64,000 nucleotides of DNA from Dromaius novaehollandiae (GCF_036370855.1 NC_088128.1:356899-420898), one strand, 5' to 3'. Positions 11,972-59,040 are shown, numbered from the stretch's first letter. Translations and numbers: made by a program. The notes: generated from the sequence alone by a model not told the origin.

Positions 11972-12256
<285 letters not shown>

Positions 12257-15257: not shown

Positions 15258-15289
15258 CTGCGGGGGGGCGCTGACGTCAGCCCCGCCCC

Positions 15290-16150
15290 GACTGCGCCTG
15301 CGCGCGCCCCCCCTTCCCCCACCACAGCCAGTGCGCATGCGCGTTCTCCTCCTCGGCCCCCCCCCCGCACTCCCGCCGCGGCTACCGCGCCTGCGCGCTC
15401 TCCTTCCACCCCCCCCCCACAAGGCTGCCGCGCCTGCGCTCTCTCCCCAACCCCCCCCCCCCGCCGCCGAGGCTACTGCGCCTGCGCGCTCCCTTTCTTC
15501 CCCCCCCCCGCGGCTACCGCGCCTGCGCGCTCTCCTTCCACCCCCCCCCACAAGGCTGCCGCGCCTGCGCTCTCTCCCCAACCCCCCCCCCCGCCGCCGA
15601 GGCTACTGCGCCTGCGCGCTCCCTTTCTTCCCCCCCCCCGCGGCTACCGCGCCTGCGCGCTCTCCTTCCACCCCCCCCACAAGGCTGCCGCGCCTGCGCT
15701 CTCTCCCCAACCCCCCCCCGCCGCGGCTACTGCGCCTGCGCGCTCCCTTTCTTTCCCCCCCCCCGCGGCTACCGCGCCTGCGCGCTCCCTTCTCCCCTCA
15801 CAACCCCCCCCGCGGCTACTGCGCATGCGCGCTCCCCTTCTCCCCCCTCCCGCCTCGGCTACTGTGCTTGTACGTCCCCCCCCCCCCGCCGCGGCTACTG
15901 CGCCTGCGCGCTCCCCTTCTCCCCCCCCCCCCCCCCCGGCCGCGGCTACCGCCCCTGCGCGCTCTCCCTTCGACTCCCCCCCCCCCCGCGCCGCGGCTAC
16001 CGCGCATGCGCGCTCCTCTTCCACCCCCCCCCCGGCTGGGTCTACTGCGCATGCGCGCTCCCCCTTCTCTCCCCTCCCCGCCGCGGCTACTGCGCATGCG
16101 CCCTCTTCCCCCCCCCCCCCCCGCGGCTACTGCGCCTGCGCCAGACATCC
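15290..16150. repeat. About 47-60-bp minisatellite in an MVP intron carrying NRF1-type GCGCATGCGC / GCGCCTGCGC palindromes
   Basis: 'cgcggctactgcgcatgcgcgctcc' at 15826, 16000, 16046 and 16093. ctgcgcctgcgcgctc variants throughout. Confidence 0.85.
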
Positions 16151-16209
16151 CGCCCTCAAGCCCCAGCCCCGCCCCCCGCGGCCCGGCCCCGCCACGCCCC
16201 GCCACGCAC

Positions 16210-19880: not shown

Positions 19881-20092
19881 CTGGCGGCAGCCTCCTGGGA
19901 GTTGGTGGCGATCTCGATGGCCAGCTGGACGCTGCGCTGGAGGGCGTCGCGGGTGCGCTGGTCCACGGGCTCCACGCTCTGGATGTCCACGCTGGTCACC
20001 ACCAGCCCGTTGGGGGCGAAGCGGAGCCGCTCGCGCAGCCGCCCGCTCTCGTCGAAGCCGAACACGGCCGAGCAGATCACCCGGTTCGAGTT
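19881..20092 (-). CDS. MVP: MVP coding exon c12: [70 protein letters not shown]
   Basis: Acceptor gtccccag|AAC. Donor AG|gtcccg. Matches human 'NSARIIRTAVFGFE...[44 protein letters not shown]'. Confidence 0.9.
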
Positions 20093-20099
20093 CTGGGGA

Positions 20100-20650
20100 C
20101 AGCGGGGACATTATGGGACGTTGGGGACACGAGGCCTCGTCGAAGCTGAACATGGCCAAGCAGATCACCCGGTTTGAGTTCTGGGGACATCGGGAACGTC
20201 AGGGGACATTGGGGACGCAAGGCCTCATCAAAGCCAAACACAGATGAACAGATCATGGGGTTCGAGTTCTGGGGACTTCGGGGACATTGGGAACATCAGG
20301 TGACACTGGGGACACGAGGCCTCGTCAAAGCCAAACACAGACAAACAGATCACGGGGTTCAAGTTCTGGGGACACTGGGGACATGGAGCCCCATCAAGGC
20401 CAAACACGGCCGAGCAGATCACCCGGTTCAAGTTCTGGGGACACCAGGGACACTGGGGACATCAGGGACATTAGGGGACATTGGGGACACAGGGCGTCGT
20501 CAAGGCTGAACATGGCCGAGCAGATCACCCGGTTCAAGTTCTGGGGACGTTGGGGACATTGGGGACATCAGGGATGTGAGGGGACATCAGGGACATGGGG
20601 CCTCAACAAAGCCAAACACGGCTGAGCAGATGACGCCGTTCAAGTTCTAG
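20100..20650. repeat. About 90-105-bp tandem array immediately 5' (in gene orientation) of MVP exon c12. It contains 6 diverged copies of that exon's first 45 or so nt plus its AG acceptor.
   Basis: 'cagatcacccggttYRagttctggggac' at 20160, 20241, 20347, 20417, 20524 and 20620, versus the authentic exon start at 20073-20100. Confidence 0.85.
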
Positions 20651-22640
20651 GGACGTTGGGGACATCGGAGATGTCAGGGGCATTGGGGACATCGGGGACA
20701 TCAGGGATATTGGACGTGTTGGCACTGGGGACATTAGGAGACATTGGAGACACAGGGACATCAGGGGACACAAGGGCATTGGGGACAGCGGGAACACGGG
20801 GATGGTGGGGACACGGGGATGGTGGGGACACGGGGACATGCAGGAATGACATGGGCTGGCACAAGGTGTCATGGGGTGACGTGGGGACACATGGGGTGAC
20901 ACGGGGATGACATGCAGCGACACAGGCTGACGTGGATGAGACAGGGCGACACAGGGTGACACGGGGTGACCTGGGGTTGACACGAAGTCACATGGGGACA
21001 CACAACACAAGGTGACACAGGATGACATGGGATGACAGGGCATAGCCCCGGGTGACATGGGTTGACCTGGGGATGACATGGGACAATGGAATTGTACAGG
21101 GATGACACGGGGACACGAGAGGATGACACAGGATGACATGGGGATGACACAGAATGACCCAAGGTTAACATGAGATGACATGAGGACACCCAAAAATGAC
21201 ATGGGGTGACACAGGGTGACACGGGGTGACACGGGGTGACCCAAGGTTGACATGAGATAACACAAGGACCCAAAGGGACGACACCGGATGACATGCAGTG
21301 ACATGGGATGACCAGAGGATGACACGGGGTGACACAGGGTGACATGGGATGACATGCGGTGACATGGGGTGACCGGAGGATGGACATGAGATGACACAGG
21401 GTGACCCAAAGTTGACACAAGATGACACAGAGACCCAAAGGGATGACATGAGATGACATGCAGTGACATGGGGTGACTAGAGGATGACATGACGTGACAC
21501 AGGGTGACACTGGATGACCCAAGGTTGACATGAGATGACATGGGGACACATGGGGATGATGTGGGATGACACGCGGTGACATGGGATGACCGGAGGATGA
21601 CGTGGGGTGACACGGAAATGACACAGGACGATGTGTGGTGACACAGGGTGACTGGAGGATGACATGGGGTGATGGGGATGACATGAGGACACAGGCGGAT
21701 GACATGGGATGACGTGTAGTGACATGGGGTGACCAGAAGATGACATGGGGTGACATGGGGTGACATGGGGACACATGGGGATGACGCAAGATGACGTGCA
21801 GTGACAGGAAGTAACTGGAGGATGATGTGGGGTGACACGGGATGACCCAAGGCTGACATGAGATGACACAGGGACCCACAGGGATGACATGAGATGACAC
21901 GGGATGACACAGGATGACACAGATGACACAAGAATGACATGTGAATAGGTGAGGATGACACGGCATGACACAGGGTGACACATGATGACCCAAAGTTAAC
22001 ATGAGATGACATGGGGACACCGGGGGATGACGTGCAGTGACATGGGGTGACACGGGGATGACATGGTATGACATACAGTGACATGGGGTGACCAGAGGGG
22101 GACATAGGGTGACATGGGGACACATGGGGATGACATCAGATGACGTGTGGTGACACAGGGTGACCGGATGATGACATGGTGTGACATAGGGTGACATGGG
22201 GACACACAGGGATGACATGGGATGACGTATGGTGACCTGGGGTAACTGGACAATGACATGGGGTGACATGGGATGACCCAAGGTTGACATCAGATGACAC
22301 GGGGACACCCAGGGATGATAGGAGATGACGTGCGGTGACACGGGATGACCAGAAGATGACACGCGGTGACAGGGGGTGACACGGGGGCACACAGTGATGA
22401 CGTGGGATGACATACAGTGACATGGGGTGACCAGATGATGACCAGAGGGTGACACGGGGTGACACGGGGACACACGGGGATGACACGGGACGATGTACGG
22501 TGACCCGGGGTGACCCGGGGATGGCACGTAGTGACCTGGGAGGAGCTGGGATGGGCCGGGAGGACCTGGGGGGGGACCAGGATGCCGCAAGGTGACACGG
22601 CCGGGGGGAGGTGACAGGGGGGAGGGGACGGCGGTGGCAC

Positions 22641-22779
22641 CTTGTGGAAGTCGTCGAAGGAGACGGCGGCGACGGCGCCGCGCACGCGGGACGCCAGGGC
22701 CTTGCAGGCGTCGCCCACGAAGTCGGGGACGCTGAAGAGCCGCCCCAGCTCCGCCGGCGTCTCCGGCACCTCAAAGTGC
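22641..22779 (-). CDS. MVP: MVP coding exon c11: (W)[46 protein letters not shown]
   Basis: Acceptor ccggcag|G. Donor AAG|gtgcca. Matches human 'HFEV...[35 protein letters not shown]'. Confidence 0.9.
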
Positions 22780-40399: not shown

Positions 40400-43090
40400 A
40401 AGAACAACGAGCAGCCGCTGACCCTATAGGGACTATGGAAAAGCCCCTGCTGCAGAGCGGCTGAGGAGGTGGGGCTATAGGGGCCATGAAGGGCCCATAG
40501 GGGCCATGAGGGGACGCTGTAGGGGCTATAGGGGCTATAGGTACCTGCTGGAGCTGCTCGCCGGGGGAGAGGGGGAAGGGCTCCTGGGCCAGGCGCACCT
40601 CCAGGTCGCCGTGGCGCAGCCGCATAGGGGCTATAGGGACCACAAAGGGGCCATAGGGACCAGAAGAAGTGCTATAGGGGCCATAGGGGCTATAGGTACC
40701 TGCTGGAGCTGCTCGCCGGGGGAGAGGGGGAAGGGCTCCTGGGCCAGGCGCACCTCCAGGTCACCAGGGCGCAACCGCATAGGGGCTATAGGGACCACGA
40801 AGGGGCCATAGGGACCAGAAGAAGTGCTATAGGGGCCACAGGGGCTATAGGTACCTGCTGGAGCTGCTCGCCGGGGGAGAGGGGGAAGGGCTCCTGGGCC
40901 AGGCGCACCTCCAGGTCACCAGGGCGCAGCCGCATAGGGGCTATAGGGACCACAAAGGGGCCATAGGGACCAGAAGAAGTGCTATAGGGGCCATAGGGGC
41001 TATAGGTACCTGCTGGAGCTGCTCGCCGGGGGAGAGGGGGAAGGGCTCCTGGGCCAGGCGCACCTCCAGGTCACCAGGGCACAGCCGCATAGGGGCTATA
41101 GGGATCATGTGGGTGCCATAGGGACTGCGGGGGGAGGCTATAGGGGCCATAGGGGCTATAGGTACCTGCTGGAGCTGCTCGCCGGGGGAGAGGGGGAAGG
41201 GCTCCTGGGCCAGGCGCACCTCCAGGTCACCAGGGCGCAGCCGCATAGGGGCTATAGGGACCACAAAGGGGCCATAGGGACCAGAAGAAGTGCTATAGGG
41301 GCCATAGGGGCTATAGGTACCTGCTGGAGCTGCTCGCCGGGGGAGAGGGGGAAGGGCTCCTGGGCCAGGCGCACCTCGAGGTCACCGTGGCGCAGCCGCA
41401 TAGGGGCTATAGGGACCACGAAGGGGCCGTAGGGACCAGAAGAAGCGCTATAGGTGCTATAGGGGCTATAGGTACCTGCTGGAGCTGCTCGCCGGGGGAG
41501 AGGGGGAAGGGCTCCTGGGCCAGGTGCACCTCCAGGTCACCAGGGCACAGCCGCATAGGGGCTATAGGGACCACGAAGGGGCCGTAGGGACCAGAAGAAG
41601 TGCTATAGGTGCTATAGGGGCTATAGGTACCTGCTGGAGCTGCTCGCCGGGGGAGAGGGGGAAGGGCTCCTGGGCCAGGCGCACCTCCAGGTCACCAGGG
41701 CGCAGCCGCGTAGGGGCTATAGGGACCACGAAGGGGCCATAGGGACCAGAAGAAGTGCTATAGGTGCTATAGGGGCTATAGGTACCTGCTGGAGCTGCTC
41801 GCCGGGGTAGAGGGGGAAGGGCTCCTGGGCCAGGCGCACCTCCAGGCCGCCGTGGCGCAGCCGCATAGGGGCTATAGGGACCACGAAGGGGCCGTAGGGA
41901 CCAGAAGAAGTGCTATAGGGGCCATAGGGGCTATAGGTACCTGCTGGAGCTGCTCGCCGGGGGAGAGGGGGAAGGGCTCCTGGGCCAGGCGCACCTCGAG
42001 GTCACCGTGGCGCAGCCGCATAGGGGCTATAGGGACCACGAAGGGACCATAGGGACCAGAAGAAGTGCTATAGGGGCCATAGGGGCTATAGGTACCTGCT
42101 GGAGCTGCTCGCCGGGGTAGAGGGGGAAGGGCTCCTGGGCCAGGCGCACCTCCAGGTCACCGTGGCGCAGCCGCATAGGGGCTATAGGGACCACGAAGGG
42201 GCCGTAGGGACCAGAAGAAGTGCTATAGGTGCTATAGGGGCTATAGGTACCTGCTGGAGCTGCTCGCCGGGGTAGAGGGGGAAGGGCTCCTGGGCCAGGC
42301 GCACCTCCAGGTCACCAGGGCGCAGCCGCATAGGGGCTATAGGGACCACGAAGGGGCCATAGGGACCAGAAGAAGCGCTATAGGTGCTATAGGGGCTATA
42401 GGTACCTGCTGGAGCTGCTCGCCGGGGGAGAGGGGGAAGGGCTCCTGGGCCAGGCGCACCTCGAGGTCACCGTGGCGCAGCCGCATAGGGGCTATAGGGA
42501 CCACGAAGGGGCCATAGGGACCAGAAGAAGCGCTATAGGTGCTATAGGGGCTATAGGTACCTGCTGGAGCTGCTCGCCGGGAGAGAGGGGGAAGGGCTCC
42601 TGGGCCAGGCACACCTCCAGGTCACCGTGGCGCAGCCGCATAGGGGCTATAGGGACCACGAAGGGGCCATAGGGGACCAGAAGAAGTGCTATAGGGGCCA
42701 CAGGAGCTATAGGTACCTGCTGGAGCTGCTCGCCGGGGGAGAGGGGGAAGGGCTCCTGGGCCAGGCGCACCTCCAGGTCACCGTGGCGCAGCCGCATAGG
42801 GGCTATAGGGACCACGAAGGGGCCGTAGGGACCAGAAGAAGCGCTATAGGTGCTATAGGGGCTATAGGTACCTGCTGGAGCTGCTCGCCGGGGTAGAGGG
42901 GGAAGGGCTCCTGGGCCAGGCGCACCTCGAGGTCACCGTGGCGCAGCCGCATAGGGGCTATAGGGACCACGAAGGGGCCATAGGGACCAGAAGAAGTGCT
43001 ATAGGGGCCATAGGGGCTATAGGTACCTGCTGGAGCTGCTCGCCGGGGTAGAGGGGGAAGGGCTCCTGGGCCAGGCGCACCTCGAGGTCA
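40400..43090. repeat. 135-bp tandem array of about 19 copies in the MVP intron downstream of exon c2. Each unit is the last 85 or so nt of exon c2 ([26 protein letters not shown]) plus the CAGCAG|gtacct donor plus about 50 nt of intron.
   Basis: Unit 'gggctataggtacctgctggagctgctcgccgggggagagggggaagggctcctgggccaggcgcacctccaggtcaccgtggcgcagccgcatagg...'. The authentic exon is at 43027-43222. Confidence 0.9.
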
Positions 43091-43222
43091 CCGTGGCGCA
43101 GCCGGGCCTGGCCGGCGCCGTCGAGCAGCGTCTCCCCGCCGGGCGCCCGGGCGGCCGGGTGCAGCACCACGCAGTAGTGCCGCGCCGGCACCGTCACCAT
43201 GCGCGCCGGCGCGAACACCACC
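43027..43222 (-). CDS. MVP: MVP coding exon c2: (R)[65 protein letters not shown]
   Basis: Acceptor ctatag|G (the repeat motif ctatag serves as the 3' splice site). Donor CAGCAG|gtacct. Matches human '[20 protein letters not shown]...[28 protein letters not shown]'. Confidence 0.85.
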
Positions 43223-57320: not shown

Positions 57321-57394
57321 GTGAGTCCCCCCCCCGCCGCACGACAGCACCCATGGGTGCCCCAGCACCCTGAGCACCCCGTTTGCGTCCCCAG

Positions 57395-57525
57395 GGAAGA
57401 CCTACACCATGCTGGGCAGCGCCGAGGAGCCGGGCGTCATCCCCCGGGCCGTGCGGGACCTGCTGGGGCTGGCGGGGCCCTGTGCCACTGTCACCGCGTC
57501 CTACCTGGAGATCTACCAGGAGCGG
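57395..57525 (+). CDS. KIF22: KIF22 coding exon: (G)[43 protein letters not shown]
   Basis: Acceptor gtccccag|GG. Donor CGG|gtgagg. Matches human '[24 protein letters not shown]...SYLEIYQEK' (P-loop GKT). Confidence 0.85.
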
Positions 57526-57589
57526 GTGAGGCGGGGGCACCCATGGGTGCTGCGCGGCGGGGGGTGCCACCACCCACCCTTTCTTTCCC

Positions 57590-59040
57590 ACCCAAATCTG
57601 GGTGTTTTTGCCTCAGGGTGACGCCCAGCGGGTGCCACCTCCCCGTCAGCCATTTTGTCCTCCTCAAATCTGGGTGTTTTCACCTCAGGTTGACGCCCAG
57701 TGGGTGCTGCCACCCATCACCCTTCGTTTCCCACCCAAATCTGGATATTTTTGCTTCAGGGTGCCACCCAGCGGGTGCCACCGCCCCATCAGCCATTTTG
57801 TCCCCTCAAAGCTGGGTGTTTTTACCTCAGGGTGACGCCCAGCGGGTGCCACCACCCCGTCAGCCATTTTGTTTCGCTCAAATCTGGGTGTTTTCACTTC
57901 AGGGTGACGCCCAGTGGGTGTTACCACCCCATCAGCCATTTTGTCTCCTCAGATCTGAGTGTTTTTGTCTCAGGGTGACACCCAGTTGGTGCCACCACCC
58001 TGTCAGCCATTTTGTCCCCCTTAAATCTGGGTGTTTTTACCTCAGGACGACACCCAGTGGGTGCTGCCACCCATCACCCTTCGTTTCCCCCCAAATCCAG
58101 GCTGTTTTCACCTCAGAGTGACACCCAGTGGGTGCCACCACCCTGTCAGCCATTTTGTCCCCCCAAATCTGTGCTTTTTCCACCCCGTCAGCCATTTTGT
58201 CCCCCTCAAATCTAGGTGTTTTCATCTCAGGGTGACACCCAGTGGGTGCTGCCACCCATCACCCTTCGTTTCCCATTTGAATCTGGGTGTTTTCACCTCA
58301 GGGTGACGCCCAGCGGGTGCCACCACCCTGTCAGCCATTTTGTCCCCCTCAAATCTGGGTGTTTTTACCTCAGGGTGACACCCAGCAGGTGCCACCACCC
58401 CATCAGCCATTTTGTCCCCCCAACCCGCACGTTTTCCACCCCGTCGGCCATTTTGTCCCCCCAAATCTGTGCGTTTTCCACCCTATCGGCCATTTTGTCC
58501 CCCAAACCCACACGTTTTCCACCCCGTCGGCCATTTTGTCCCCCAAACCTGTGTGTTTTCACCCCATCAGCCATTTTGTCCCCCAAACCCACACGTTTTC
58601 CACCCTGTCAGCCATTTTGTCCCCCAAATCCGTGCTTTTTCCACCCTGTCGGCCATTTTGTCCCCCAAACCTGCGCATTTTCCACCCCGTCGGCCATTTT
58701 GTCCCCCAAACCTGCGCATTTTCCACCCCGTCAGCCATTTTGTCCCCCCAACCCGCACGTTTTCCACCCCGTTGGCCATTTTGTCCCCCAAACCCACATG
58801 TTTTCCACCCTGTCAGCCATTGTGTCCCCCCAAACCCGTGCGTTTCTGCCCCGGGTGACCCCACAGCAGGTGCCACCATCTTGTCAGCCATTTTGTCCCC
58901 CAAATCCGTGCTTTTTCCACCCTGTCAACCATTTTGTCCCCCCAACCCGTGCGTTTTCCACCCCATCAGCCATTTGTCCCCCCAACCCACACGTTTTCCA
59001 CCCTGTCGGCCATTTTGTCCCCCAAACCCGCGCGTTCCCA
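57590..59040. repeat. About 59/118-bp minisatellite in KIF22 intron 4. Units carry CAGCCATTTTGTCC (YY1-like core) and acceptor-like TGTTTTTACCTCAG|GGTGAC.
   Basis: Direct reading. About 12 copies of 'atctgggtgtttt(t/c)acctcagggtgacgcccag'. Later copies read 'ccgtcggccattttgtcccccaaacc'. Confidence 0.9.

Follow-up and report, generated by a model that had tools for sequence, protein, structure and literature searches.

The window, i.e. the whole 64-kb stretch of DNA analysed here, has a G+C content of 68% and carries the MVP gene on its minus strand. Sixteen MVP exons were located by tblastn at 45954-14307 (minus strand) using an MVP probe, which served for exon location only. Refinement of the splice junctions yielded a 16-exon spliced model with an open 840-aa protein, and this model was validated by Pfam, which recognized Vault, Vault_2, Vault_3, Vault_4 and MVP_shoulder in the protein (E-values 5e-65 to 5e-17). 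The gene that carries the array described below is MVP. Exons of two neighbouring genes, one encoding part of a kinesin motor domain (57325-57618, plus strand; Pfam PF00225, 3.8e-9) and one part of a TLC domain (11972-12253, plus strand; PF03798, 1e-9), lie in DNA that is as GC-rich and repeat-filled as that of MVP. A search with Rfam at gathering threshold returned no match anywhere in the 64-kb window. The part of MVP that concerns us here is made up of the following elements:

19881-20092, minus strand: MVP exon 12 (212 nt), encoding part of the shoulder domain, with the protein end ...QEAAA (tblastn, spliced model and Pfam)
20093-20100, minus strand: authentic 3' splice site GTCCCCAG of the phase-0 intron (spliced model; top PWM score)
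20093-22640, minus strand: MVP intron 11 (2548 nt, phase 0), 58% of which is covered by TRF repeats
22641-22779, minus strand: MVP exon 11 (...AVSFDDFHK) with the donor AAG|GTGCCA (tblastn, junction refinement and spliced model)

Tandem repeats dominate the introns of this gene. TRF repeats cover 83% of all MVP intron DNA (14307-45954, minus strand) and a fraction of 0.40-0.98 of each long intron, and both the repeat motif and the strand skew are particular to each long intron; the only repeat-free introns are two very short ones, introns 3 and 5 (80 and 85 nt). In intron 11, the 5' part is occupied by a 10-mer repeat of the CATGTCATCC type, and the 3' part by reiterated copies of the start of exon 12. 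The latter were defined with the 45 nt that open exon 12 (AACTCG...GACGAG, 20092-20048, minus strand) as query, in an ungapped scan that covered the 64 kb on both strands and required at least 62% identity. Apart from the exon itself, exactly six 45-mers matched, all of them on the minus strand and at most 555 nt upstream of exon 12:

20048-20840, minus strand: whole stutter array, delimited by TRF, unit lengths, G4 motif counts and a sequence alignment (A1); the first 45 nt of exon 12 (20092-20048) are its anchored last unit
20136-20188, minus strand: copy C1, GTCCCCAG plus 45 nt (45-mer at 20180-20136), 41/45 identical to the exon
20224-20276, minus strand: copy C2, GTCCCCAG plus 45 nt (45-mer at 20268-20224), 35/45 identical
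20321-20373, minus strand: copy C3, GTCCCCAG plus 45 nt (45-mer at 20365-20321), 36/45 identical
20390-20442, minus strand: copy C4, GTCCCCAG plus 45 nt (45-mer at 20434-20390), 39/45 identical
20496-20548, minus strand: copy C5, GTCCCCAG plus 45 nt (45-mer at 20540-20496), 39/45 identical
20602-20654, minus strand: copy C6, GTCCCTAG plus 45 nt (45-mer at 20646-20602), 36/45 identical

All six copies start at nucleotide 1 of the exon, include the splice site and are 78-91% identical to the exon. In five of them, the 45-mer is preceded by the exact acceptor 8-mer of the authentic site, GTCCCCAG, and in C6 by GTCCCTAG. No similar copy was found outside intron 11 in the 64-kb window or in shuffled sequences: across 200 shuffles of intron 11 and 30 first-order Markov sequences of 64 kb, no match reached 35/45, and the best was 26/45. 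The preliminary description of this DNA had proposed that the acceptor and about 45 nt of the exon are duplicated six times in the upstream intron, at about 20160, 20241, 20347, 20417, 20524 and 20620. The scan recovers precisely this number, and each of these positions is covered by one of the C1-C6 matches. That description had also named a lack of similarity beyond chance as the observation that would speak against it; with a proper aligner, five of the copies are matched by BLASTN with E-values of 1e-12 to 1e-19.

The units of the array are 88, 88, 97, 69, 106 and 106 nt long, and TRF calls the array with periods of 88, 97, 69 and 106. Each unit consists of the 45 exon-derived nucleotides, a junction sequence GCCyCrTGTCCC and a spacer of TGTCCCCRA 9-mers. 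The likeness to the exon stops in every copy at one and the same junction, GAG|GCCyCrTGTCCC, following ...GA(C/T)GAG: at this point the exon reads AGCGGGCGG, whereas the copies read GCCyCrTGTCCC and then 9-mers until the next acceptor. The 9-mer tract extends to about 20840, beyond the most distant copy. On the plus strand the spacers read GGGGACAT, which matches G-quadruplex motifs; intron 11 as a whole contains 16 G4 motifs on this strand, the template strand of MVP, and none on the other. The acceptor 8-mer GTCCCCAG is present ten times within the final 640 nt of intron 11 and absent from its 5' 1.9 kb.

The differences between the copies and the exon have the signature of CpG decay. CpG transitions account for 27 of the 44 differences, and the divergence is 35.7% at CpG positions compared with 7.5% elsewhere. 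Replacements show no preference for synonymous over non-synonymous positions, as in C1, which reads NSNRVICLAMFSFDE. Since non-synonymous positions have changed freely and in-frame stops are present, the copies are not under coding constraint. The small open reading frames noted earlier in this region (MICLAMFSFDEAS... and others) are indeed translations of the copies, as the preliminary description had stated. Their early translation resembles the start of the exon 12 peptide and a good acceptor opens each copy, and one could thus imagine alternative or mutually exclusive coding mini-exons that arose by tandem exon duplication. We give virtually no credence to this idea. Tandem exon duplication would differ from what is seen here in the extent of the copy, as only 45 of the 212 exon nucleotides are repeated, and in its outcome, as every extended reading of the copies runs into a frameshift or a stop. 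Moreover, there is no synonymous bias, CpG decay dominates, and no usable donor follows any copy: no GT adjoins the terminal GAG, and the nearest one, CTC|GTGTCC, would define a frameshifting exon of 50 nt.

Judged by sequence, the copies look like intact acceptors. The AG is kept in all six, and the pyrimidine content at positions -23 to -4 is 0.65-0.75 for the copies and 0.70 for the real site. A branch-point-like CTGAC, CTGAT or TTGAT is located 18-28 nt upstream of every copy; the real site has no branch-point-like motif that fits yTnAy. We scored these sites with a PWM derived from the window's 14 other MVP acceptors, a crude and gene-specific model whose scores are weak evidence. The real site ranks first among the 33 AGs of intron 11 (8.4 bits), and the copies take ranks 4-8 and 15 (6.1 to 2.2 bits). 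Real MVP acceptors range from 5.4 to 15.8 bits, and among the copies only C1 falls inside this range. These scores hint that the copies may be plausible but somewhat poorer acceptor sites. As C1 lies within the range of real sites and the copies have the better branch-point-like motifs, some of them could be used to an appreciable extent. The predicted consequences of such use are as follows:

Use of C1: insertion of 88 nt; frameshift, no stop inside the exon
Use of C2: insertion of 176 nt; frameshift, stop at 20079
Use of C3: insertion of 273 nt, a multiple of three; stop at 20230
Use of C4: insertion of 342 nt, a multiple of three; stop at 20230
Use of C5: insertion of 448 nt; frameshift, stop at 20396
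Use of C6: insertion of 554 nt; frameshift, stop at 20589

The expectation that use of the copies would add in-frame or out-of-frame sequence is correct for the lengths of the inserts, as both classes occur, but the two inserts that are multiples of three still meet the stop at 20230. Because every copy acceptor of the window leads to a frameshift or a stop, no decoy would be able to give intact MVP.

The interpretation of the copies as decoy 3' splice sites, put forward in the preliminary description, is thus plausible as judged from their sequence. Decoy 3' splice sites and decoy exons are a familiar class of elements, exemplified by the In100 element of caspase-2 and by decoy exons that promote intron retention. 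Similar to these, the copies are intronic acceptor-like sequences that might bind early spliceosome components unproductively. However, each of the known decoys is a single, conserved element whose regulatory role is supported by experiments, whereas the exon 12 copies form a repeat array of variable copy number in which no constraint is seen. Tandem acceptors of the NAGNAG type offer another comparison, since there, too, acceptor AGs have been duplicated by local duplication. NAGNAG acceptors are spaced by 3-12 nt, share a branch point and give in-frame products; the units of the exon 12 array, in contrast, are 69-106 nt long, each has a branch-point-like motif of its own, and every product would be frameshifted or terminated.

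We compared the array with other birds and with non-avian orthologues. A search of 5.8 billion proteins with the exon 12 peptide gave 272 homologues, of which two are from birds and both of these are fragments: a partial MVP of the kiwi Apteryx rowi (97%) and an ORF from a JGI metagenome (96%). No full-length bird MVP was present among the 272 homologues of this peptide, and in most assemblies the GC-rich MVP gene of birds seems to be "hidden". The MVP exons nearest to those of the window are from birds. In the kiwi protein (P0002), FDDFHK is joined to NSNRVICS (...FDDFHK|NSNRVICS), at the same point as the exon 11/12 junction of the window. The corresponding kiwi contig (L001) comprises exon 11, an intron of 3471 nt and exon 12. 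As in the window, the 5' end of the intron consists of a 10-mer repeat, here of the GTCATCCC type, and the 3' end contains at least nine copies of the acceptor plus 45 nt, which are 89-100% identical to the kiwi exon and lie in units of 142-187 nt; this count is a lower bound, as a gap of 293 Ns may conceal further copies. A second bird is represented by the metagenome contig L002, in which intron 11 has only 477 nt (compared with 2548 nt in the window) and contains two strongly decayed copies (26/45 and 29/45, 58-64%) in units of about 150 nt. A scan of metagenomes with a conserved exon 32-mer as query yielded a single contig (L003), which comes from a separate assembly and is identical to L002, and so derives from the same species; a scan of prokaryotic genome contigs gave no match. 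In the kiwi and in L002, each readable copy acceptor likewise leads to a frameshift or a stop (one kiwi copy is cut by the assembly gap), and most kiwi copies have an in-frame TAA at codon 20.

These comparisons bear on the reliability of the array itself. In bird genomes, repeat regions with a high GC content are prone to errors (Hron et al, 2026; PMC12954441), and the copies might in principle be an assembly artefact in which reads were collapsed or expanded. Such an origin is very hard to credit, given that the copies differ from one another at 5-14 of 45 nt with a biological signature of CpG decay, and that the same architecture recurs in the independent kiwi assembly and in two independent metagenome assemblies of another bird.

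The three birds share the position of the breakpoint but differ in exon variants within the copied part. The junction GAG|GCCyCrTGTCCC is common to the window, the kiwi contig L001 and L002/L003 (alignment A1), and the spacer motifs CCCATAATGTCCCC and CCCCGCTGTCCCCAG are common to the window and kiwi units. Within the copied part, by contrast, the copies follow the exon of their own species. In the window, the exon and the copies have G at position 6, or A as the product of its CpG decay (in C1), and four copies have T in place of the neighbouring C at position 5; the kiwi exon and all nine kiwi copies have C at position 6; and the first copy of L002 has T9, C13 and C15 in common with the exon of L002. 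The common breakpoint, in combination with these own-species exon variants, points to an old single duplication that was followed by concerted evolution including the edge of the exon. Codon 16 of exon 12 (20045-20047 in the window), just beyond the copied part, is AGC (Ser), GGC (Gly) and GCC (Ala) across the three birds; the corresponding columns of the copies (59-61 of alignment A1) are GCC, GCT or ACC in all of them. The copies may therefore preserve the ancestral exon state at codon 16, in which case the original breakpoint would have been after nucleotide 48. The distances between the three taxa (window-kiwi 5.7%, window-L002 9.1%, kiwi-L002 10.3%) do not allow the comparison to be rooted. 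In two non-avian orthologues, no copy was found within the 1176 nt (L004) or 477 nt (L005) upstream of the exon. The acceptor of L005 (465-480) reads gatgtccccag|AACTCAAACC, on account of which the TGTCCCCRA spacer of birds looks like an expanded ancestral acceptor tract.

The alternative, that the arrays are recent and of separate origin in each bird lineage, would readily explain why the copies resemble the exon of their own species, most closely in the kiwi with its 89-100% identity, and agrees with the report that orthologous introns of related species usually differ in their expansions (PMC12954441). We nevertheless consider it unlikely. The breakpoint after nucleotide 45 and the sequence that follows it are identical in three species, the window and the kiwi have two spacer motifs in common, and the copies keep GCC after GAG although the exons have diverged to AGC, GGC and GCC. 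Three independent duplications with identical ends are improbable, whereas one origin with subsequent concerted evolution fits both patterns.

A functional role is the second alternative that the bird comparison helps to assess. The copies could act as functional decoy acceptors that engage U2AF/U2 non-productively or give rise to NMD substrates, and could thereby tune MVP or the retention of intron 11. The six intact AGs and five exact acceptor 8-mers, the canonical branch-point-like motif at -18 to -28 of each copy and the presence of an array with an identical junction in three bird lineages would all be in keeping with such a role, as would the fact that all outcomes of copy use are unproductive, which regulated unproductive splicing requires. 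However, the arrays vary widely between the window, the kiwi and L002: the copy number is 6, at least 9 and 2, the units measure 69-106, 142-187 and about 150 nt, and the copy quality is 78-91%, 89-100% and 58-64%, with the copies of L002 almost decayed. The acceptor 8-mers, with one change in 48 nt, are slightly better preserved than the non-CpG exon-derived positions (7.5%), but the retention of the AGs is not significantly above the neutral expectation at non-CpG sites. Arrays are also present at other exon edges of MVP and in many bird genes (PMC12954441), which argues for a mutational process and against a locus-specific design. On balance, a function as decoys appears distinctly improbable to us, judging by these sequence comparisons.

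Arrays of this kind have been described in chicken. Hron et al (Genome Biol Evol, 2026; PMC12954441) reported "sequence stuttering" or "exon stuttering" in genes of chicken dot chromosomes, where a lateral exon part and the donor or acceptor next to it are repeated in imperfect tandem along the neighbouring intron and the exon itself is preserved, "creating potential alternatively spliced transcripts". Their screen identified 115 genes and 236 introns, with exon parts of 20-187 bp (median 36) and 1-44 copies (median 4), and more than 90% of the stutter sources were within 1 nt of the exon border; the study reported no analysis of transcripts. The array at exon 12 is a case of such exon stuttering. 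Its copies are located in the proximal intron and nowhere else, and exceed the shuffled control; the exon part measures 45 nt, starts at the border, is present in six copies and carries the splice site along; and the copies form an imperfect tandem cluster in a simple-repeat-rich intron next to an intact coding exon, in a GC-rich and G4-prone context. With the exon part alone as BLASTN query, three copies exceed the bit-score threshold of 42.1 used by Hron et al (64.4, 58.1 and 57.2). Exon stuttering is also characterized by extensive polymorphism of intron length within a species; across species, intron 11 measures 2548 nt in the one haplotype of the window, 3471 nt in the kiwi and 477 nt in L002. 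The kind of array is already described and MVP is newly added to it; MVP is absent from the 115 chicken gene names in the text of Fig. S5 of that paper. The preliminary description was accurate as to the structure at exon 12, but was made without this published context and without the gene-wide and bird-wide setting of the repeats. In one respect, the MVP array departs from the published picture. Hron et al suggested independent and recent events, because orthologous introns of related species usually have different expansions, whereas the MVP junction is common to the kiwi, the second bird and the window.

A second precedent is the minisatellite in IVS7 of human F7, the first monomer of which spans the exon-intron boundary (Borensztajn et al, PLoS Genet 2006; PMC1557585). 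Similar boundary-spanning minisatellites were listed there for IFI6 (6-16), CBS IVS13, LMNB2 and PDGF intron 4, all of them on the donor side. The pseudo-sites of F7 are competent but normally silent, and the most upstream donor is chosen, in line with 5'-to-3' scanning (PMC1557585). The exon 12 array resembles F7 IVS7 in that a terminal monomer, here the last of seven, holds the exon/intron junction and the authentic site is reiterated. It differs in being on the acceptor side, with the authentic site as the most downstream of seven, and the upstream-first rule of F7 therefore has no explanatory power for exon 12. For an acceptor-side boundary-spanning minisatellite, we found no specific precedent in the literature beyond the general statement in PMC12954441. 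MVP contains a second exon-edge array, which is exactly of the F7 IVS7 type, i.e. donor-side with the authentic site most upstream:

40468-43104, minus strand: exon 2 donor-side array, 17 repeats (one real and 16 copies) with a period of 155 nt and 92-99% identity

Each unit of this array spans the donor CAG|GTACCTATAG, with the 3'-terminal 78 nt of exon 2 on one side and 76 nt of intron on the other. All of its donors are intact, and readthrough past the donor meets a TAG after 23 codons.

The reading that we favour for the exon 12 array, with a probability of roughly three in four, is that of an exon-anchored minisatellite, a case of avian exon stuttering that is a tolerated by-product of repeat instability and not a designed element. 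We infer the following course of events. A tandem duplication of about 90 nt straddling the boundary between intron 11 and exon 12 would have placed a second acceptor together with exon nucleotides 1-45 (possibly 1-48) upstream of the intact exon. The array would then have grown and shrunk through slippage or unequal exchange among the G-quadruplex-prone TGTCCCCRA repeats. As the first 45 nt of the exon are the fixed terminal unit of the array, exon and copies would be intermittently homogenized in each lineage. In the intervals between homogenization, the copies in the intron are shown to drift like non-coding DNA, mostly through CpG deamination. In splicing, the copies would be sequence-competent pseudo-acceptors that are mostly bypassed, because exon definition requires an acceptor contiguous with the full 212-nt exon and its donor, and the 3'-most site alone is in that position. 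A transcript spliced at a copy would be frameshifted or prematurely terminated, and nonsense-mediated decay would remove it. The array could thus be tolerated for two reasons, namely that the 3'-most acceptor alone is contiguous with the exon and that mis-spliced products are removed by NMD. Most likely, then, the array is a largely silent by-product of repeat instability.

The persistence of one junction across deeply diverged birds could also be compatible with selection. In a stronger version of this idea, the array would be ancient, dating back at least to the split between the kiwi and the other bird, and selectively kept, with its acceptors serving as a sink for U2AF/U2 or as NMD-coupled alternatives that set MVP expression, and with gene conversion steering codons 1-15 of exon 12. 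If true, the array would be a natural acceptor-side counterpart of F7 IVS7 and would show the spliceosome skipping six competent upstream AGs. We regard this scenario as very remote.

MVP joins the genes with exon-edge repeat arrays and has two of them within one gene, on the acceptor side of exon 12 and on the donor side of exon 2. What goes beyond the literature is the single junction common to deeply diverged birds and the fact that the copies track the exon of their own species. The published view of recent, species-independent expansions is thereby qualified, since we argue for an old exon 12 stutter whose evolution is concerted with that of the exon edge. With its authentic site as the last of seven, the array is also a ready natural substrate for work on the rules of 3' splice-site choice. 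Finally, exon-edge arrays mislead gene predictors and ORF callers, and they may help to explain the near-absence of bird MVP from protein databases.

Several further repeats in or near MVP exons were inspected for the same pattern. Two of them, a repeat spaced at 162 nt downstream of exon 13 and 22-mers that flank the exon 9 donor, were rejected as exon copies, as the matches were intron-only or too short. In intron 14 (15258-16209, minus strand), GC-rich repeats (GGGAGCGCGCAGGCGCAGTAGCCGCG and similar) are 70-75% like nucleotides 20-121 of exon 15 (BLASTN bit scores 53.6 and 43.7) and are either exon-derived or merely similar low-complexity sequence. The other end of exon 12 shows a stutter in the second bird, where a decayed copy (79%) of about the last 66 nt of the exon with its donor flank lies in the downstream intron (L002, 922-998); a search for the same in the window matched only generic C-rich intron motifs. 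In the window, the authentic donor of exon 12 at 19881 (minus strand) is CAG|GTCCCG, which has a C at +3 and departs from the consensus at each of +4 to +6, and GTCCCC motifs of the same form fill the adjacent intron repeats. Core motifs alone are insufficient for splice-site choice in MVP.
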